A program made the translations under genes and the position numbers. 64,000 bases of DNA from Longimicrobiales bacterium (GTDB lineage: Bacteria; Gemmatimonadota; Gemmatimonadetes; Longimicrobiales; Gaopeijiaceae). The stretch lies in the NCBI GenBank assembly GCA_965249725.1, contig OZ252251.1, forward strand, positions 608,001 to 672,000. Direction: 5' to 3'. Positions 48,005-57,971 of this stretch are shown piece by piece. The notes under the pieces were generated by a model, which was not told the origin of the DNA, did not search any database, and saw nothing but the letters and a program-made list of their open reading frames with translations. How positions within the stretch are numbered: the stretch's first letter is position 1; every line of letters starts with the position of its first letter.

Positions 48005-49771
48005 TTAGGGCCGGTTCGCCTCGATGCGCCTAGCCATTTCCCTGAACATCTCGCCCCGCGGCTTGGGCTGCCATCCGTGGCTCATCATCGGGCGCCCGTA
48101 GAGGATCTCCCCGCCATAGTGTGGCTCGGCGGTCTCGAAGAACTCCTCGAGTTCGTAGACGGCCAGGTTCAAGTAGAACTGATCCATCTCCCCGACGTAG
48201 ACACGGAGTTTCCCCACGAGGTCGGGGCCGATCTCGTCCCAGTTCTGCCGGATGTAGTGAACCAGGTCGTACCCGTTGTCTCGCATGTACTCGGCCACCT
48301 CCCGGTCGATCACTCCTGTGTCCGGGTCCCAAAGTGGGCGTGGGTAACCGTCGTCGCCTACCGGTCCGTATACGGCCTCCCAGATCCCCAACTGTTGAGC
48401 GCCACGGCCCTTGTTTCCTAGGACCTGCTCGAAGCGCGTCATGTCACGCATCGTGATCGTCGGTTGTCCGATGAAGTCGCCGTGATTCCAGTGGTCTCGC
48501 ATCCAATAGCGCTCTGGCTCGATCCACTCGTGATGGAGGTCGGGCGTGTAGGCGTTCGCCTCCTCGTAGATGTTGATGAGACCGTAGCGCGTGAAGTCGA
48601 TGGGATCCGGATAGAGTACCCACGCGCCACCGAAGAACTCGGGGTTCTGGACCTGCAGCACCAGCGACTCCCACCCGCCGGTGGACCCACCGGTCAGCAC
48701 TCGCGCATACCCCTCGCGGATGATCCGGAACTCCTCCTCGACACGTGGAATCAGCTCCGTCATGATGGCGTCACCGTACGGTCCGTTGTTGGCCGAGTTC
48801 ACGGCGTAGGAGTCGTCGTAATAGGGGGTCGGGTGCTGGAACGTGACTCCGATCATCCTCGGGAAGTCGTCTGACATCCACTGATGAGAGAACTCCCAAC
48901 CGGTCTCGCCGTTGTGGCGCAGGCGCACCTCGCGGCGGTCCGGGTCCTCCTGTCCGGGCGCCTCGGCGGTGGTGAAGCCGAAGGGAGCGCCGAGACTGAA
49001 ATGGCCTTGCCCATAGACCACCGGGTAGCGCCGGTCGGGCTCCTCTTGGTATCCCTTGGGCAGCAGGACCGTCGCACCCAGGTAGATGGGCCGGCCCCAG
49101 AACTCCGTGAGCAGTTCGCTCTGGAACTTGATGCGTTTCACCCATTCGGTGTCGGGCGGGACCTCGACCGGAGGGAGTACGTCGGTCAACTCCAGCTGGA
49201 CCGTGTATCCGGCGCTCGGATCGAGGTGCACGCGCTGCACCTCACTCACGATATTCCCGGGCGAACGGTTGAACCTCTGGCCCTCCCATTGGTCGTCGTG
49301 GATCCAGACCGTGTGGCCGTCCGCTCGCTGAAACTCCGTGTACACGTTTGCGATGGCCTGGACGTAGTATTCGCCGGCCGGGATATCGCCCAAGCGCTCG
49401 GGAGGGTATCCGACCGTGGCACCGTCCAGGACGGCGGCTTCACCCGGCTGCCAATCCTGCACGTCTACGCCGAAGAAAGGGACGCTCGTCTCCCACGCGC
49501 CAGCCTGTAGGCGGGGCTCCCGAGAGTCGTCGCGGGTGATCATGACCAACACGCGGCCCGTGATGGGCTCGGACCGAGCCGACTCGGCGTACGTTACCTC
49601 GAAGCGTGTGTCGGCCGGGCCGGTGCATCCGCCGACCAGCACCGCTACGGCGATCAGGCTCGACGCGAAGGTGCGGGGGCCGCGGCGGTGCGTACCAGGG
49701 TGTGTACCAGGGTGTGTACCAGGGTGTGTACCAGCGTGTGTACCAGCGTGTGTACCGAGTGGTCGTGACAT
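48005..49771 (-). CDS. Lipoprotein alpha/beta-hydrolase (putative esterase), paralog of 7514-9274
   Basis: Lipobox LVGGC; SELLTEFWGRP; GGSTGGW; QHPTPYYDDSYAVNS. Confidence 0.82.
   Translation of the reverse strand: MSRPLGTHAGTHAGTHPGTHPGTHPGTHRRGPRTFASSLIAVAVLVGGCTGPADTRFEVTYAESARSEPITGRVLVMITRDDSREPRLQAGAWETSVPFFGVDVQDWQPGEAAVLDGATVGYPPERLGDIPAGEYYVQAIANVYTEFQRADGHTVWIHDDQWEGQRFNRSPGNIVSEVQRVHLDPSAGYTVQLELTDVLPPVEVPPDTEWVKRIKFQSELLTEFWGRPIYLGATVLLPKGYQEEPDRRYPVVYGQGHFSLGAPFGFTTAEAPGQEDPDRREVRLRHNGETGWEFSHQWMSDDFPRMIGVTFQHPTPYYDDSYAVNSANNGPYGDAIMTELIPRVEEEFRIIREGYARVLTGGSTGGWESLVLQVQNPEFFGGAWVLYPDPIDFTRYGLINIYEEANAYTPDLHHEWIEPERYWMRDHWNHGDFIGQPTITMRDMTRFEQVLGNKGRGAQQLGIWEAVYGPVGDDGYPRPLWDPDTGVIDREVAEYMRDNGYDLVHYIRQNWDEIGPDLVGKLRVYVGEMDQFYLNLAVYELEEFFETAEPHYGGEILYGRPMMSHGWQPKPRGEMFREMARRIEANRP
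49692..49756. repeat. 12-bp tandem repeat GTACCAG(G/C)GTGT x5.4, encoding GTH(A/P) on the minus strand
   Basis: Units start at 49692, 49704, 49716 (G variant), 49728, 49740 (C variant), partial 49752. Confidence 0.95.
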
Positions 49772-49987
49772 CGTGGTTCTCCGTTGTTCTTCTGCGACAA
49801 CTCCTAGGTGACCGCGGAGCAACGCGCGCGCCGGGGAGGAGGTGACGATACGGCTGCTTGGCCGTGATGTCATCGTCGGGAGGGCCCGCACGAGGGCCGA
49901 GCCGCGGCCCGAGGTTGCCGCGCGTACGTTCCGACTGCCTTTTGAGGGACCCTGTTGCCCGGATCTCCGACCCTACGAGGGAACCTG

Positions 49988-51400
49988 ATGTCCTCCGAAT
50001 GCACAAGGCACCCGCAATCCCATCGGAAGCCGCTCACCGGCCTTTCCACGATCCTGACCTGGATCCTCGCACTCGTCGGTGTCTTCCTGATGACCGCGTG
50101 TGCTCCGTGGGACACGCCCGGTACGACCGACTCCTCCTTCGAGTTCGACCTCCCCAACTGGTCCGAGCAGGTAACACTGCGCGAGGGGTGGCTCGAACGT
50201 CGACACGAGATGCTGCTCCCCATGATGCGCCAGTACGATATCGACATGTGGATCATTGTGAACGAGGAGTTCCACGACGATCCGCTGACCGAGTACATCG
50301 CACCTCCCAGGCCCTATACCGGCAACCGCGACATGTTCGTGTTCGTCGACACGGGAGCGGGATTGCGGAGCGTCGCGATCACCGGGTTTTCGGAAGTCAA
50401 TCTCAAGCGTTTCTTCGAGTCGCCCGACGAGCCGCGCCCGGCCAGCGAAGTGCTACCGGAGCTCTATCGCGAGCATGCTCCGCAGCGCATCGCGCTCGCA
50501 ATGGACGGGCGGAAAGGCATGACCCGCAGCCTGACCCATGCGTCGTATGGGTACCTGAGTGAGATCATGGGCCCGGAGGCCACCTCCAGGTTCGTGGGCG
50601 CGGCCGACTTGATCGAAGAGTTTCTCGACACCCGGATTCCCGAGGAACTGGAGTCCTACCGCCAGCTCGTCCAGCTGACGGAGATCATTGCCAAGCGGTC
50701 ACTGTCCGACGAGGTCATCGAGCCCGGCGTCACGACGATCGGTGACGTGCGACGCTGGATCTACAACGCGATGTGGGAATACCGCGTGGGGACGTGGTTC
50801 CAGCCCGACCTGCGGCATCAGCGCGGCGGAAGGCCGAACGACACGTCCAGGGGCTTTCTCGCGGTTGCGCCGGAGGATTGGGTGATCGAGCCGGGCGACG
50901 TGCTGCACCTCGATGTGGGCATTTCCTATCTCGGGTTCGACACCGACTGGCAAAAGATGGCCTATGTGCTTCGCGACGGTGAGGCGGAGCCGCCGGCCGG
51001 CCTCCAAGCCGCCATGGCGAACACGAACGCTCTTCAGGACGCCCTCACGTCGACCGCCCGCCCGGGCCTCACGGCCGGCGAGGTGTACGACGCGACCATG
51101 GCTGTGATGGACGCCCAGTTGATCAACGCCCAGATCTACTCCCATCCGCTCGGCAACCACGGCCACGGCATGGGGCCGAGCATCGACTTCCGGTCGGCCC
51201 GACGGGGCGACACGGCCCGACAGTCGAAGCGCCTCCGGGACGGCTCGTACATCTCGATCGAGCTCAACACCCGCACGGCCGTGCCCGAGTGGGACGGGCA
51301 GGAGGTCTACATCATGATGGAGGATCCTGCACACCTGGACGACGAAGGGTACCACTTCTTCGTGCCACGACAGGAGAGTTTCTACCTCATCGGGGGATGA
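49988..51400 (+). CDS. M24-family (Xaa-Pro aminopeptidase-like) metallopeptidase, probable lipoprotein
   Basis: Hydrophobic N-terminus ending [36 protein letters not shown]. Confidence 0.88.
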
Positions 51401-51447: not shown

Positions 51448-52134
51448 TCAACGGACCTCGGGTCCCCCCGTCCGATCGTCCGGGACGAATCGATCTCGTG
51501 CCGGCATCACCACCGCCGGCAGGGTCTCGGCGTTCATGACCGCGTCCTCAGGGATGATCTCGTTGAGGTAAAGGACGTAGGCCACGGCACCGTAGACCTC
51601 GTTCGGTGTGAGCGAGCCCGGCGACTCCAACGGCATCGTGCGCGTGACGTAGTCGAAGATCGTGGTGGCGTAGGGCCAGTAGTTTCCGACCGTCTTCGTG
51701 TATTGCCCCCGGGCCGCGCCGAACGGGAAGCCCTCGCGTGGCTCGCGACCGACCAGGCGGTCATTCGGACCCTCGGTGCCGGTGGCCCCGTGACAGACCG
51801 CGCACTTGGCCGAGAACACCTGTGCACCTTCGGCGACGGTTGCACCTCCGGGCGGCAAGCCGGCTCCGTCGGGCCGGACGTCCTTGTCCAAGGCGGCGAT
51901 CTCGGTCGCAGTGGCATCCCGGCCGATCTCGAAGGTGGCAGGCCAGTGCGCCGGAGCCGCTGATGCAACCGGAGGGGGCCCGAACCCGGGAGGGGTCTGC
52001 CGCCCGGCCGAACCCTGTCCACTCGGTGCGGCCGCATCAGGCTGGCACGCCGTAAGGGCGACAGCCAGCCCGATCAGAGTCGCGGCCACTCGATGAGAGT
52101 CACGCAATCCGGAGTCGCTACGTGCGCGGCTCAT
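51448..52134 (-). CDS. soxD: SoxD-like c-type cytochrome
   Basis: DVRPDGAGLPPG; CAVCHG; TVGNYWPYATTIFDYVTRTMP; overlaps soxC stop. Confidence 0.82.
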   Translation of the reverse strand: MSRARSDSGLRDSHRVAATLIGLAVALTACQPDAAAPSGQGSAGRQTPPGFGPPPVASAAPAHWPATFEIGRDATATEIAALDKDVRPDGAGLPPGGATVAEGAQVFSAKCAVCHGATGTEGPNDRLVGREPREGFPFGAARGQYTKTVGNYWPYATTIFDYVTRTMPLESPGSLTPNEVYGAVAYVLYLNEIIPEDAVMNAETLPAVVMPARDRFVPDDRTGGPEVR

Positions 52135-53384
52135 GCTGTATCTCCGCTACCGAAGAAGACACGTCCGTCAGCCTGCACGCTCCATGGTCTGATGCTGTTG
52201 TAGTGGTAGGCGCTTCCTTCGCCTCGGGCCGCCATGAGCGTTTCGAGGCTGGGTTGCGTGTATCCGGTCTCATCGATCGCGCGACTGAGCAGAGTGGTCG
52301 CCCGCCCGTCCCAATTCCAGAGGTGACGGAATCGAGTCGTGCACTTGGAGAGCACGGGCTCCTGAAGCTCGGCCGGCTGCCATGTGCGCCCCCCGTCCGT
52401 ACTCACTTCCACTCGAGTGATGCCGCCCCGCCCGCTCCAGGCCAGTCCAGTGATCTCCCACCAGCCACGCTCCGGGAGCACATACGGGAAGGTGGGGAAG
52501 GTGATCGTGGACTTCGCGTCCATCACGAGGCTGAACTGGCGCGAGGTGCCGTCGGCTAGCGGGTCCGTGTACTTGGACGTCTCGTCTCGTGTCATGAAGG
52601 GCCCGTCCGACACCTCGATGCGTCGGATCCACTTCACCTGAGCATTCCCCTCCCATCCCGGGAGGAGGAGTCGGGCCGGGTATCCCTGTTCCGGCCGGAT
52701 CGCCTCACCATTTTGCCCGAAGGCGATCATGGCGTCGTCCCATGCCTTCTCCAGAGGGACGCTCCGGCCCATGACGGCTGCATCGCCGCCCTCGGCCAGC
52801 AGCCAGGTCGCACCGGGCCGCACCCCCACCTCGCGCAGGAGGGTGGCAAGTGCCACGCCCGTCCACTCACTCGTGCTGAGGAGTCCGTCGATCTGCTGCG
52901 GTGAGACTTCGGGGCGGGGCTCGCGGTTGTAGGCCGCCCCACCATTCCCTGAACACTCGACGAAGCAGAGGCGAGATACCGCCGGGAGGCGCTTCAGGTC
53001 GCGCAACGTGAACGTCATGGGTCGCTCTACCATGCCGTGGACCACGAGCGAATACTGTTCCGGCTCGATGTCGGGAATCCCCCCGTGGTGCCGTTCGAAG
53101 TGGAGATCGGCCGGAGTGATGATTCCGCGAAGCTCATGGATGGGAGTCCGTGAGGAAGACGAAGGACCGGGCCGCATTCCCGCGCGTCTCGGCTGTTCCC
53201 CCGGCGCCCTCTGACCCAGTTCGCTGGTCCCCCTTCCAAGCACCTTCGTGGGGTCCGGCGGGGCTTGCTGGGGTGTGGGTTGAGCGTCACCCAAGGAAAG
53301 GGCGTCGGCCTGCGTCTTGAGGAGGCCGCCGGCGATCAGGCCTCCGGTTGCTCCGAGCATCGCGCGGCGTGACAGGCGGGCCAT
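52131..53384 (-). CDS. soxC: SoxC-like sulfite/sulfane dehydrogenase molybdopterin subunit
   Basis: Tat SRRAML; GIITPADLHFERHHGG; FVECSGN (Mo-ligating Cys); RPEQGYPARL; ETSKYTD; GLAWSG. Confidence 0.88.
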   Translation of the reverse strand: MARLSRRAMLGATGGLIAGGLLKTQADALSLGDAQPTPQQAPPDPTKVLGRGTSELGQRAPGEQPRRAGMRPGPSSSSRTPIHELRGIITPADLHFERHHGGIPDIEPEQYSLVVHGMVERPMTFTLRDLKRLPAVSRLCFVECSGNGGAAYNREPRPEVSPQQIDGLLSTSEWTGVALATLLREVGVRPGATWLLAEGGDAAVMGRSVPLEKAWDDAMIAFGQNGEAIRPEQGYPARLLLPGWEGNAQVKWIRRIEVSDGPFMTRDETSKYTDPLADGTSRQFSLVMDAKSTITFPTFPYVLPERGWWEITGLAWSGRGGITRVEVSTDGGRTWQPAELQEPVLSKCTTRFRHLWNWDGRATTLLSRAIDETGYTQPSLETLMAARGEGSAYHYNSIRPWSVQADGRVFFGSGDTA

Positions 53385-53532
53385 GACACCTCCAGAATCC
53401 GACGTTTCGCGACGGGCCCCTCGCGGAGCATCCCCGGAGAGTCCCGAGATCGCCCCTCCCGTAGCGTCTGAGGAGAGCAACCTCCGTCCCGTTCGAGGTC
53501 TCCCGCAAGTCCCCCGGCCGGGCCCTCCCGCG

Positions 53533-53562
53533 TTGACAGGGTCGGCAGGCCCCCTTTAGCGT
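53533..53562 (+). promoter_or_regulatory. Putative sigma70 promoter (TTGACA-N18-TAGCGT)
   Basis: Perfect -35 TTGACA at 53533-53538; TAnnnT at 53557-53562; ATG begins 7 nt after the last -10 base. Confidence 0.6.
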
Positions 53563-53568
53563 CATGGC

Positions 53569-53901
53569 ATGATCTGGTTGCGCGAATGCTTGACCAAGCG
53601 ATTGGGGGCAGGGCTGGCGGTTTGGACGCTGGCCGTGGGGGTTACGATCCCTTTCCTCGATCGAGACCTGCTGGGCTTCGACATCGCCATCGAGGCGGAG
53701 CACCAGGAGGCGTGTAGCGTTCCGGCCCACGATCACACGATCTGCTCCCAATACGGCAAGCATCCGTGGGCGACCCCTCCAAGCGAAGTCGACCCGGCTC
53801 TCCCGCCGTCCATAGTGGAGGCCGTGGTGCATCGGCAGGACTTGATTCCACCGAGGCGCCTTTCCCGCCCAGCGCACCCCCGAGCTCCACCCACCCTCTG
53901 A
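53569..53901 (+). CDS. DUF2946-like leader peptide with Cys/His cluster and C-terminal RAPP motif
   Basis: Hydrophobic segment LGAGLAVWTLAVGVTIPFL; HQEACSVPAHDHTIC; Pro-rich linker; ends HPRAPPTL. Confidence 0.75.
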   Translation: MIWLRECLTKRLGAGLAVWTLAVGVTIPFLDRDLLGFDIAIEAEHQEACSVPAHDHTICSQYGKHPWATPPSEVDPALPPSIVEAVVHRQDLIPPRRLSRPAHPRAPPTL

Positions 53902-53903
53902 GA

Positions 53904-54014
53904 TCCTTCCTGCATCTAGCAGGAAGACCGTGAGCGCGGTGCCCTGACGGCACACGCGCCCCATCGGTCGTCGCCCCTCCCGAGAGACTGGGAGACGGGC
54001 TTTCAGGGGAAGGA
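53904..54014 (+). promoter_or_regulatory. Structured intergenic RNA with anti-SD
   Basis: Hairpins 53906-53926, 53934-53959, 53973-54000; TCCTTCC (53904-53910) is the reverse complement of GGAAGGA (54008-54014). Confidence 0.55.
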
Positions 54015-54016
54015 AA

Positions 54017-55351
54017 GTGAAGCAACAAACCATCCGAGGCCTGAGCCTCTTCATTCTATGTGCCGCCTTCGTGGCGGCTCCGGGTACCGCCCGGGGGCAA
54101 GACGTGTCGCGCTCCCAGGCCGACTCGTTGCGCGCCGAGATCGCCGAGCTTCGGAGCCAGCTCGACAGCATCCGCGTGCTCGTCGCGCAGGGGGGCGCGG
54201 AGCCGGACGAGGAAGATGACGCCCTTGCCCGTCTCCGAGCGGCGGCCCGAGCGGCGGCGGGGGGACCCGAGGCCGACACACCCGCGCTAGACGAGGGCGA
54301 CCAGGAGTTCGTGGGCCGTTCCCGCTCTCTGCAGGCGCTGAACCCCGAAATCAGTGTGACGGGTGACCTCTTATTCTCGATTCAGAGCGAGGACGCCGAC
54401 GCCGACAACTTCGTCCCTCGGGAATTCGAGTTCTCATTCGTCTCGGCGCTGGATCCCTTTTCGAGAGCCAAGATCTTCCTCTCGGCGGAAGAGGAGGGCG
54501 CCCGGATCGAGGTCTTCCCGGGGGCGGAGGAAGAGGCCGATGAGCATGGTCCGGGGCTCGCGGTCGAGGAGGGCTACCTGGAGTGGGTGGGGATCGCCGG
54601 GGGCGTAGGGATCAAGGTAGGGCGCTTCTTCCAACAATTCGGGCAGGTGAATCGTTGGCACAGCCATGCCCTTCAGTTCCAGAGCCGTTCGCTGCCACAC
54701 CTGGCGTTCATCGGGGAAGAGGCGCTCGCACAGGATGGCGCGTCGCTGCGGTGGCTTCTCCCGAACAACGGAGGTGGAGCCTACGAAGCGACCGTCGAGG
54801 TGACGCGAAGCACGAACCATGGCCTGTTCGGGGAATCTCGGGGACCGAGTTACCTGGGGCACTTCAACGCCTTCTGGCAACTCTCCTCAGCGGTCGATCT
54901 GGACCTGGGGTTGAGCGCGATCTTCGGAGACCACCTGGCAGACGGCGTCACCTATTCCAACCGACTGTTCGGAGCCGAGGCGGCGTTGAGTTGGGTGCCT
55001 CCGGATCGGTCCCGGTACCGGGGCGTCACGCTCAGAGGGGGCGTCATGGTGTCCGATCCGGGGGCCGCATCAGGCTCCCCGGCGCCCGAGTCGGCCTTGG
55101 GAATCTGGTCCCTCGCGGAGATCAAGTTGTCGAGGCAGTGGATCGCCGGTGGCCGCTATGAGTGGGTGGAGAACCCCGATGACCCCACGGAGACGGCGTG
55201 GCTGGCATCCCCGGCGCTGACGTACTGGCAAAGCGAGTTCGTTCGACTGAGAGCGGAGTACGATGTGTTGGGCAACCCGGGGGCAACCACGGGCCAGTTC
55301 ACGCTCCGAATCACGTTCGCCATGGGACCTCACAAGCACGAGACGTACTGA
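54017..55351 (+). CDS. Outer membrane beta-barrel protein of metal-uptake loci
   Basis: Signal peptide, coiled-coil N-region, LNPEISV, SALDPF, VEEGYL, FGQVNRWHSH, SEFVRLRAEY, C-terminal GPHKHETY. Confidence 0.75.
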   Translation: MKQQTIRGLSLFILCAAFVAAPGTARGQDVSRSQADSLRAEIAELRSQLDSIRVLVAQGGAEPDEEDDALARLRAAARAAAGGPEADTPALDEGDQEFVGRSRSLQALNPEISVTGDLLFSIQSEDADADNFVPREFEFSFVSALDPFSRAKIFLSAEEEGARIEVFPGAEEEADEHGPGLAVEEGYLEWVGIAGGVGIKVGRFFQQFGQVNRWHSHALQFQSRSLPHLAFIGEEALAQDGASLRWLLPNNGGGAYEATVEVTRSTNHGLFGESRGPSYLGHFNAFWQLSSAVDLDLGLSAIFGDHLADGVTYSNRLFGAEAALSWVPPDRSRYRGVTLRGGVMVSDPGAASGSPAPESALGIWSLAEIKLSRQWIAGGRYEWVENPDDPTETAWLASPALTYWQSEFVRLRAEYDVLGNPGATTGQFTLRITFAMGPHKHETY

Positions 55352-55361
55352 GGGTATAGCG

Positions 55362-56435
55362 ATGATGAAAGCACTAGCGATAGTCGTGATGACGGGTTGG
55401 ATGTCCGGGCTTCACGGGGATGCGGCGCCTGGCGCCGGTCCGGACCGGCAGGAGCCTGTTCGCGTCGTCACGACGCTCCCCGTGTACGCGGATCTCGTGC
55501 GGAAGATCGGCGGAGCCGAAGTCGAGGTGTCCTCCATCGCCGCACCGAATGAGGACTCACACTTCGTCCGCCCAAAGCCCAGCTTCGCAGTACAGATCCG
55601 GCGGGCAGAGATGTTCGTCACGACCGGGCTCGACCTCGAGCTGTGGGTCCCGACCCTTCTCGATCGCGCCGGGAACCGCGATGTGTCCGAGGGTGGCCGA
55701 GGCTATGTGACGGCCTACACGGGGGTCGAGCTGTTGGACATTCCGACCTCGATCGATCGAAGTGGAGGCGACGTCCACGTCTTCGGGAATCCCCACCTGG
55801 TTACCGATCCCCTCCGGACCCTCCGAGTGGCCCGGAACATCACGGTCGGCCTGAAGAGGGTGGCGCCCGAACGGTCTCGAATCTGGGACGTCGGCCTCGC
55901 GCGCCTGACTGAGGAGATCTACGTCAGGCTCTTCGGGGAGACGTTGGTCGAGCTCCTCGGGGGAGATGTTCTGGCCGACCTGGCCTTGAAGGGCACGCTC
56001 TATCCGTTCCTCGAAGTCGAGGAGTGGCAGGGCAGGCCCCTGATTCACGAATTGGGTGGATGGCTCGGAATAGCGGAGCCGTTCCGCGGCCGCGACATCA
56101 TCTGCTACCACAAGAACTGGGCGTATCTCGAGGATCGCTTCGGTGTTCAGTGCGCCGACTACGTCGAGGCCAAACCCGGCATCCCGCCCACTCCCGGCCA
56201 TGTGGCCGATCTCCTCGAGAAGATGTCGAATGAGGGCCTGGACGTGATCCTGGCCGCCTCGTACTTCGACCAGAAGAAGGTCGATTCCGTGGCCCGGCGC
56301 AGCGGCGCCCACGTCGTCGTCGTCCCCATGAACCCCGGAGGCAAGGATGGTGTCGACGACTACTTCGCCCTCGTGGACGACTGGGTCGAGGGATTGGCCG
56401 AGGCGCTCGGTCCGTCCACCGGTCCGTCCAGATGA
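55362..56435 (+). CDS. Metal ABC transporter substrate-binding protein (ZnuA/TroA cluster A-I)
   Basis: VVTTLP; EDSHFVRPKPS; GLDLELW; GDVHVFGNPHL; YHKNW; EAKPGIPPTPGH. Confidence 0.9.
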   Translation: MMKALAIVVMTGWMSGLHGDAAPGAGPDRQEPVRVVTTLPVYADLVRKIGGAEVEVSSIAAPNEDSHFVRPKPSFAVQIRRAEMFVTTGLDLELWVPTLLDRAGNRDVSEGGRGYVTAYTGVELLDIPTSIDRSGGDVHVFGNPHLVTDPLRTLRVARNITVGLKRVAPERSRIWDVGLARLTEEIYVRLFGETLVELLGGDVLADLALKGTLYPFLEVEEWQGRPLIHELGGWLGIAEPFRGRDIICYHKNWAYLEDRFGVQCADYVEAKPGIPPTPGHVADLLEKMSNEGLDVILAASYFDQKKVDSVARRSGAHVVVVPMNPGGKDGVDDYFALVDDWVEGLAEALGPSTGPSR

Positions 56436-56467: not shown

Positions 56468-57289
56468 ATGCTCGACCTGATGCTCGCGCCCATCGCGGCC
56501 GGCCTCGTCATTCTCGCGATTCATGCCTATCTGGGGCTGCACGTCATCGCGAGGGGGGTGATCTTCGTCGATCTGGCCTTCGCCCAGATCGCCGCGTTGG
56601 GCACTACCGTGGGACTGATGATGGGTGTAGAGCATGGGACACCCATGTCGGTGGCCTTCTCACTCGGGTTCACGCTGATCGGCGCTCTCATTTTCTCGTT
56701 CAGCCGCCTCGAGGAGACTGTCGTGCCTCAGGAGGCCATTATCGGCATCACATATGTCGTGGCCTCGGCGGCGGTCATCCTCATCGCCGGTTTTACGGCC
56801 GAGGGTGCGCAACACGTGGCCGAGACCATGACGGGTACGCTCATCTGGGTGACCTGGCCTCAGATTCTCCGCATGGCTGTGGTCTATGTGGTCTTGGGTG
56901 TCTTCTACTACGCGTTCCGGCATCGCTTCGTCGCTCTGTCGATGCGTGACGACACGCTCGAGCAGGGCCGGCTCTGGGACTTCCTGTTCTACGTCGCCTT
57001 CGGAGTCGTGATCACGTTTTCGGTAGCCATTGCCGGTGTCCTCATGGTCTTCAGCGCTCTGGTGATTCCAGCCGTCGTGGCCTTTCTGTTCACGAGCCGA
57101 TTCCTCGTAGCTCTGGTGTTGGCGTGGGTCGTGGGGACCGCTGCGCTGGTGACCGGAGTGGTGGCGTCCTTCGTACTGGACGTCGCGACAGGACCGTTGC
57201 TGGTATGTACGTTCGGACTGGCGCTGGTCGTGGCACTGCTCGTTCGGTGGGGAACCGGGGTCCAACCCGGAGGCGATCTCCAGGTTTGA
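56468..57289 (+). CDS. Metal ABC transporter permease (ZnuB/ABC-3)
   Basis: YLGLHVIARGVIFVDLAFAQIAALG; EAIIG; GVLMVFSALVIPA; TGPLLV. Confidence 0.9.
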   Translation: MLDLMLAPIAAGLVILAIHAYLGLHVIARGVIFVDLAFAQIAALGTTVGLMMGVEHGTPMSVAFSLGFTLIGALIFSFSRLEETVVPQEAIIGITYVVASAAVILIAGFTAEGAQHVAETMTGTLIWVTWPQILRMAVVYVVLGVFYYAFRHRFVALSMRDDTLEQGRLWDFLFYVAFGVVITFSVAIAGVLMVFSALVIPAVVAFLFTSRFLVALVLAWVVGTAALVTGVVASFVLDVATGPLLVCTFGLALVVALLVRWGTGVQPGGDLQV

Positions 57290-57404: not shown

Positions 57405-57971
57405 TTGAAGCGTCTAGTCTGCGCGCTTTTGGTGGCCACGTTTCCGATCGTGTCGGGTTGTGGTGGCGACGATCCAGTCGGACCCATTGCATCCGGCCCG
57501 ATGCAGTTGAGCATCACGGGCATCGCCCCGTCTGACATCGAAGCCGGAGTCATCGACCGGAACGTCAGCATTACGACTGCAGCGGCCAATCTGTGGCCCA
57601 GCTACGTACGCCTCGTGTCGGACCTGTGTGGTCGAGATCCGGTGGGGTTCTCGATCAACTCGCTCGCGATGTCACTCGACTTCGAAGAGAGCCTGAACGT
57701 CTCGCAACTCGAGGAGGTCTTTGACGGCACCGTGACCATCTACCTGACCGCCGGAGGCGCGACGGTGGAAATCGGTACCGGATTGGTTTCCGGTGCGGGC
57801 CCTGTCACGCTACAGGGCGTCAGCACGGAGGAGGCGCTGGCCGTGCTCTATACCCAGATGCTGGCGGGGACGTTTCAGGTGGGCCTGAGGGCCGAAACCT
57901 CTCGCACCGCCGAGGACGATTTCTCGCTCGACGTGGAGGTGTCCTTCCTCACGCGCGCCTCTTGCCAGTAG
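57405..57971 (+). CDS. Hypothetical lipoprotein
   Basis: SD GGAGG; MKRLVCALLVATFPIVSGC lipobox. Confidence 0.7.
   Translation: MKRLVCALLVATFPIVSGCGGDDPVGPIASGPMQLSITGIAPSDIEAGVIDRNVSITTAAANLWPSYVRLVSDLCGRDPVGFSINSLAMSLDFEESLNVSQLEEVFDGTVTIYLTAGGATVEIGTGLVSGAGPVTLQGVSTEEALAVLYTQMLAGTFQVGLRAETSRTAEDDFSLDVEVSFLTRASCQ

Follow-up and report, generated by a model that had tools for sequence, protein, structure and literature searches.

A leader peptide whose last codons are predicted to mask the ribosome-binding site of a ZnuA-type metal operon in Gemmatimonadota

We analysed a 64,000-nt stretch of DNA from a Longimicrobiales genome (hereafter the window) and propose that one of its operons is governed by a translational attenuator of the CutF/SecM type, in which the nascent chain of a DUF2946-like leader would stall the ribosome, a helix designated P0 would mask the next gene, and metal would release the stall; we assign this reading a probability of roughly two in three, and the metal sensed is probably not copper. 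Its central element, that the next gene's Shine-Dalgarno (SD) sequence is masked by RNA that a stalled ribosome would cover, is supported by folding models and sequence comparison. Computation and comparison establish the conservation of the leader, the spacing of its motifs, the gene order, P0 and a locus-specific complementarity.

The leader is a 110-codon open reading frame (53569..53901, plus strand), followed after an intergenic gap of 115 nt (53902-54016) by a set of three plus-strand genes for a porin-like protein, a ZnuA-family protein and an ABC-3 permease; it is thus the first gene of a metal-homeostasis operon, as in the DUF2946/CruR/CutF class. The 110-aa product has a hydrophobic N-terminus, His45 and Cys49, the sequence H54-D-H56-x-x-C59, a further 45 residues and the ending RAPP-T-L-stop. 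A hydrophobic 17-mer (KD of at least 1.5) occurs in 79 of the 83 leaders of the comparative set described below, with a KD of 1.88 in the window, and hydropathy is the only basis on which we speak of a putative export signal or transmembrane segment. The candidate metal-binding motif HDHxxC (53728..53745, plus strand) differs from CxxC in that its first Cys is exchanged for His, so that this leader lacks the CxxC motif of the DUF2946/CruR/CutF class; HxxC is found in 74/83 loci, CxxC in 6 more distant loci and neither in 3. The spacing from this motif to RAPP, searched over a range of 40-50 residues, is 45 residues in the window and in 69/74 HxxC loci, and 44-46 residues in 74/74. The RAPP codons (53881..53892, plus strand) put the predicted stall at 53887-53889 for the P site and 53890-53892 for the A site, and variants over the 83 loci are RAPP in 78, RGPP in 4 and RSPP in 1, the RAPP-type end being itself the criterion by which leaders were searched. 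The two-residue tail of the window (RAPP-TL-stop) recurs in 62/83. We also observed that the first Pro of RAPP is encoded by CCT or CCA in 57/83 loci (33 + 24), codons that make up approximately 8% and 7% of porin Pro codons, respectively; this enrichment was not accounted for by SD pairing.

Upstream of the leader, a promoter-like pair (53533..53562, plus strand) consists of TTGACA at 53533-53538 and TAGCGT at 53557-53562, separated by 18 nt and ending 6 nt before the leader ATG, and it scores below the threshold of a consensus scanner. Among relatives, TAnnnT lies 5-9 nt upstream of the leader start in 60/82 and TTGAC is present in 62/82, the corresponding count for porin starts being 0/83; because of this proximity of TAnnnT to the leader starts, the leader mRNA is probably leaderless or nearly so.

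The match of the leader to Pfam DUF2946 (PF11162) reaches 12.5 bits (E 0.25), under the gathering cut-off of 23.7, and a match even this weak was obtained for only 1/20 aligned leader members. Given this sub-threshold score and the replacement of CxxC, we do not count the leader as a PF11162 member. The nearest Atlas cluster bears the automatic name 'putative DUF2946' (score 0.98), and PF11162 is carried by 13% of the members of one neighbouring Atlas cluster, a connection that we regard as a lead only. A six-frame PF11162 search of this genome gave no match, and no paralogous leader was found in it with the family profile or PF11162. When the leader profile was compared with the protein collection, 41 matches were obtained among 8000 candidates scored, and none of them had a Pfam domain or an informative name.

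The first gene proposed to be regulated (54017..55351, plus strand) encodes a porin-like exported protein of 444 aa, which has a weak Pfam BBP2 match (E 0.016) and falls in one Atlas cluster, 22% of whose members carry Porin_O_P. The second (55365..56435, plus strand) encodes a ZnuA/AztC-type metal-binding protein with three conserved His (PF01297, E 7e-38), and the third (56468..57289, plus strand) an ABC-3 metal permease (PF00950, E 6e-19). For the ZnuA-type protein, the best NCBIfam match is AztC, below cut-off, and the best PDB match is 5kzj, which we take to be AztC; Mn/Fe binding proteins match it as well. Its His residues are invariant at three sites (75, 73 and 71 aligned loci), and the fourth position varies. 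A ZnuA homologue lies 3' of the porin in 69/69 loci with room and a permease in 51/51. No ATPase gene adjoins the ZnuA/permease set, and a Walker A motif was found in 0/51 loci with enough DNA. The genes downstream suggest a Zn/Mn type of uptake, not copper; because AztC, a zinc protein, gives the best family and structure matches (below cut-off) and His is invariant at three sites, the metal is most likely Zn, with Mn, Ni or Co possible. Two Fur-family genes are present in this genome. After the permease we observed a lipoprotein-like ORF of 188 aa (57405-57971), without a Pfam match and present in 2/51 loci including the window.

The RNA between leader and porin is far more stable than expected by chance: 53880-54040 folds with -73.8 kcal/mol (z -4.7; 0/200 shuffles as good). 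In its minimum-energy fold, P0 pairs 53895-53903 with 54001-54009 and closes a junction of three hairpins. The 5' strand of this helix (53895..53903, plus strand) comprises the leader's last codons, the stop codon and 2 nt more, and its masking role is indicated by the fold and by the blocking and swap tests below; the 3' strand (54001..54009, plus strand) holds the likely SD, AGGGG at 54005-54009, which lies 7 nt before the GTG start. A weaker extension pairs 53884-53892 with 54012-54019. This choice of SD accords with the duplex with the 16S tail of this genome, which has -6.5 kcal/mol for 54003-54010 vs -5.5 kcal/mol for GGAAGGA (54008-54014), a heptamer that ends only 2 nt before GTG. Within the junction, hairpin P1 (53904..53926, plus strand; 53907-53913 with 53919-53925) is constitutive in the models; arm P2 (53926..53969, plus strand) has a probability of at least 0.996 for the pair 53928:53967 and is a variable arm that recurs in near relatives; and hairpin P3 (53973..54000, plus strand) stands directly 5' of the masked RBS strand in the minimum-energy fold. 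P3 is not an intrinsic terminator because it has no U tract, and no GC hairpin with a U tract was found in 53902-54016; an 8-nt window with at least 6 T occurs in 1/83 intergenic regions. A terminator-like hairpin with a T-rich tail was observed within the porin's first codons (54036-54049). When known Rfam families and riboswitches were considered, only three matches were obtained, with E 0.24-9.1 and all far under gathering scores, and we rejected them.

An earlier note on this DNA had placed the masking strand at TCCTTCC (53904-53910), the exact complement of GGAAGGA, and had overlooked the predicted helix of 53895-53903 with 54001-54009. The structural elements that it listed were borne out: the exact complementarity exists, CTTCCTGC (53906-53913) can pair with GCAGGAAG (53919-53926), with a local hairpin probability of 0.98 in ensembles that leave this hairpin free to form, and the hairpins 53934-53959 and 53973-54000 as well as the GACCG/CGGTC helix (53926-53930 with 53965-53969) that encloses the former all belong to the minimum-energy fold. 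The idea that TCCTTCC alternates between its own hairpin and the SD is contradicted in silico, and we give it very little credence. Its pairing with the SD does not exceed a probability of 0.0005 in every ensemble tested, and enforcing it costs 12.4 kcal/mol, the corresponding cost being 0.2 kcal/mol for P0; blocking TCCTTCC alone changes the opening energy of the SD only from 10.7 to 10.6 kcal/mol. Covariation with the SD among relatives was likewise not found, with 63% paired and 283/500 shuffles as good in 16 loci and z 0.3 in 83 loci. Hairpin P1, which contains most of TCCTTCC, has 92.9% of cells paired in the 16 near loci and two-sided changes in 4/7 pairs, and among the closest relatives two loci (L027 and L030) carry joint changes in TCCTTCC and in the strand that it pairs with in the hairpin, the SD being unchanged. 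What speaks for the switch is the exact complementarity over 7 bp; an exact complement of GGAAGGA arises in 29/3000 shuffles, and one of some RBS heptamer in 412/3000. The reason for this complementarity is that the 3' arm of the hairpin, GCAGGAAG, has GGAAG in common with the RBS.

We placed the stall register according to the ApdA/ApdP structures (PMC10951233) and the CruR toeprints (PMC12992588), with the 3' edge of the footprint assumed at +12 to +18 from the P site, a range over which the result was unaffected, and with all energies taken from equilibrium models. A ribosome with 53887-53889 in the P site, assumed to reach approximately 53902-53905, would thus cover the P0 5' strand and leave hairpin P1 intact. 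From the 10.7 kcal/mol of the free RNA, the opening energy of 54005-54009 falls to 5.7 when 53895-53903 is blocked and to 4.6 kcal/mol under the stall footprint. For the wider RBS the value is model-dependent, changing from 15.1 to 6.6 kcal/mol when all upstream RNA is blocked and from 15.6 to 10.2 kcal/mol with a 28-nt footprint only. The earlier note had also suggested folding with 53880-53910 held single-stranded, and this does open the SD (12.3 to 3.8 kcal/mol for 54006-54014), but TCCTTCC is not the cause; the constraint acts because it includes the P0 5' strand. Its broader proposal that a ribosome paused on RAPP would free the RBS is supported by computation and comparison, but the specific mechanism through TCCTTCC is not.

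Comparative tests were carried out on related loci, the named relatives being Gemmatimonadota and the closest ones Longimicrobiales. The porin matched 23/61 relatives and 101/301 family genomes, and no porin match was obtained in the two same-genus genomes searched (90% complete). We gathered 124 loci, including 80 regions taken from the 101-genome match list and thus representing part of that list; 10 of the 124 had no upstream DNA or were partial matches, and in the 114 usable loci a RAPP-type ORF end was found upstream of the porin in 105 and was absent in 9. Before statistics 22 loci were dropped, of which 1 fell outside the family, 7 had doubtful starts and 14 were more than 90% like another, giving the 83 loci, in which kin are not fully independent and porin starts were chosen by a heuristic that uses the SD score. 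Concerning loci that lack the leader gene, we observed one close relative (L045; G081:C1:353700-358800) whose porin, 76-78% identical, directly follows a gene matching window positions 49955-51400, so that leader, junction and the oxidoreductase pair described below appear to be absent. In three further loci (L118, L120 and L121) the porin is a second copy that has no leader and stands immediately behind Cys-containing genes belonging to another operon; a ZnuA match is present there and a permease match was not found in the stretch examined.

The intergenic sequence, with a median length of 97 nt in the 83 loci, is not conserved across the leader family and cannot be aligned across it, and therefore we used a swap test, in which each leader tail was paired with its own RBS and with those of other loci. 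The pairing energy was -17.1 kcal/mol for tails with the RBS of their own locus and -13.9 kcal/mol for tails with the RBS of other loci (0/5000 permutations; z -10), and the signal is strongest in the leader's last ~18 nt and at -25 to -2 of the porin start. The controls were null, giving z 0.3 for the coding region and z -1.6 for upstream sequence besides the z of the TCCTTCC slot mentioned above. In 41 sister pairs on the porin tree the cognate combination was better in 29 and the swapped one in 11 (sign p 0.006), the controls giving 21:16 and 20:19. Native tail codons were better than the median synonymous recoding in 64/83 loci with usage weighting and in 73/83 with uniform weighting. The stall footprint lowered RBS opening by a median of 3.5 kcal/mol, with at least 2 kcal/mol in 52/83 loci; a control ribosome placed 12 codons earlier produced such a drop in 7/83, and 263 crudely called control gene pairs of this genome had a median of 0.0, with at least 2 kcal/mol in 35/263 and none at the window's 8.5.

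In roughly one locus in three little effect is seen: the footprint drop is under 2 kcal/mol in 31/83 loci, 5 of them opposite in direction. In the swap test only 13/83 loci individually rank within the top 5%, the window having a rank of 0.12. Over the 16 near loci the P0 core hardly varies, and thus few compensatory changes are seen; its register in these loci was anchored by hand on TCAG, and on the automatic alignment, which is out of register on the P0 3' strand, P0 reaches only 59% pairing. Applied to the same 16 loci, RNAalifold found P1 and a portion of P3 and did not recover P0. An exact complement of a stop-region 5-mer occurs in the RBS in 16/83 loci vs 11.6 expected, CCTCC codons show no association with GGAGG in the RBS (p 0.61), and covariation of stop codon and RBS was not seen (TCAG in the RBS of 28/74 TGA loci and 3/7 TAG loci; CTAG in 0/7 TAG loci).

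On these grounds the attenuator would operate as follows. The leader would be translated from a probably leaderless transcript, and as long as its 3' end is free of ribosomes, 53895-53903 would pair with 54001-54009 and hide the porin SD, the three hairpins folding away the ~100 nt between the P0 strands. When metal is scarce, the ribosome would arrest with RAP in the P site and cover 53875 to ~53902, so that P0 could not form and porin, ZnuA-type protein and permease would be translated; such an arrest at RAPP is suggested by the RAPP precedents ApdA/ApdP and CruR. Metal may bind the His/Cys site 45 residues upstream, which would lie just outside the exit tunnel, and would release the arrest; the ribosome would then terminate and P0 refold. 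That metal would turn uptake off in this way is our reading from the downstream genes, which are importers.

Known systems supply close parallels. CutF of Rhodobacter capsulatus (cutF-cutO; DUF2946-like) has likewise an exported leader with a metal motif and a Pro-rich C-terminus (PMC9973294, 10.1101/2025.02.05.636593), and its stalled ribosome melts RNA masking the SD of the next gene, as is predicted here (PMC9973294). It differs in having CxxxC rather than HDHxxC, in sensing Cu and stalling on metal binding, and in controlling, over a gap of 40 nt and by way of an intergenic anti-SD, an oxidase (PMC9973294, 10.1101/2025.02.05.636593), whereas in the window ZnuA/ABC-3 genes follow a 115-nt gap and the predicted anti-SD is formed by the leader's last codons and stop. 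CruR (Bp2923) of Bordetella pertussis (DUF2946/PF11162) shares the export signal, a distance of 45 residues from metal motif to RAPP and of 2-3 residues from there to the stop, a long intergenic region, an outer-membrane uptake gene next to it and the expected release of the stall by metal (PMC9426467), and its arrest has been demonstrated (PMC12992588). Unlike the window leader, with its HxxC and probably leaderless start, it has CxxC, senses Cu and carries a 45-nt 5' leader, and its output is Rho-dependent termination before a TonB receptor (PMC9426467), in contrast to the conserved SD-masking helix before a non-TonB porin-like gene found here. SecM-secA and ApdA/ApdP also undergo arrest close to the C-terminus, at RAP/P (RAG/P in SecM), and in secM-secA the stalled ribosome disrupts a stem-loop hiding the downstream SD, but these leaders monitor Sec/YidC activity and precede sec genes, and a metal motif is not described for them in the parts available (PMC10987492, PMC10951233). 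The window leader would work like CutF and SecM in its RNA output and like CruR in its layout and expected direction.

The literature describes such leaders as widespread, some of them being of a His-only kind with a link to Ni/Co, and reports RAPP uORFs ahead of numerous metal genes (PMC9426467, 10.1101/2025.02.05.636593, PMC9973294, PMC10951233, PMC12992588, PMC10987492, PMC8456105). In the literature searched we found no paper on such a leader in Gemmatimonadota or before znuA, and supplementary tables (the 5,334-protein list of PMC9973294 and the source tables of PMC12992588) may catalogue it; three supplement files of PMC9973294 (8,054 characters, without the 5,334-protein list) contain no 'Gemmatimonad', 'ZnuA' or 'PF01297'.

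Among other explanations, transcriptional control as in CruR, in which the stalled ribosome would shield a C-rich Rho site and its release would permit Rho termination within the intergenic region, is unlikely as the principal mechanism. It would make the helix secondary or co-acting, a blocked RBS adding polarity. The mechanism has been demonstrated for CruR (available parts of PMC9426467), Rho is present in this genome, the intergenic region is long, and the leader 3' end is C-rich (over the 20 nt that directly precede RAPP, C 0.47 and G 0.23 in the 83 loci), but the C excess comes partly from Pro codons, the intergenic RNA is heavily structured and the locus-specific complementarity to the RBS would be left unexplained. 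Rho-dependent control could nevertheless act in parallel with the P0 switch. Slightly less probable still is an opening that depends on the stall and involves no sensing of free metal, either as a SecM-like monitor of secretion or the envelope or as plain translational coupling of leader and porin. P0 would be melted by a terminating ribosome as well, because the opening stays the same when blocking is carried to 53908-53914; the N-terminus is hydrophobic in nearly all leaders and RAPP leaders precede sec genes (available parts of PMC10987492); a His/Cys motif fixed at its distance from RAPP and downstream genes for metal importers, not Sec parts, argue against it.

The direction of CutF, in which metal binding would induce the stall and turn the operon on, for example for periplasmic metal handling by an operon without its own ATPase, we consider improbable. 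CutF combines an SD-masking stem-loop with copper-induced stalling, according to the available text of PMC9973294, and no ATPase gene was found in 51/51 loci, so that import is not proven; however, the ZnuA and ABC-3 families are uptake components, and induction of uptake by metal excess seems unlikely. Release of the arrest by metal, with P0 as the mask, thus remains our preferred reading. Its most specific form is a zinc-responsive arrest-peptide sensor of Gemmatimonadota that would combine CruR logic with a CutF/SecM-type RNA output on a leaderless mRNA, with arrest codons and stop serving as anti-SD for an RBS 100 nt away across a junction of several hairpins, in which the sequence changes but the pairing is preserved; this form we advance tentatively, at somewhat below even odds.

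The two studied leaders of this kind, CruR and CutF, sense copper, and a His-substituted version before ZnuA-type genes would extend nascent-chain sensing to another metal and, if true, place metal uptake under post-transcriptional control in a common, uncultured lineage. Because the masking strand lies within the leader's last codons, the predictions are exact and testable, with the caution that any change of codons at RAPP affects peptide and RNA switch simultaneously. Concerning neighbouring genes, a divergent pair on the minus strand (51448-53480) encodes a molybdopterin oxidoreductase with PF00174 and PF03404 together with a cytochrome c that matches PF13442 and PF00034, and resembles sulfite oxidase genes of the SorAB/SoxCD type. 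A minus-strand ORF of 628 aa (48005-49891) carries near its N-terminus approximately five copies of a short tandem peptide repeat, GTHP/GTHA, which possibly lies upstream of the true start.
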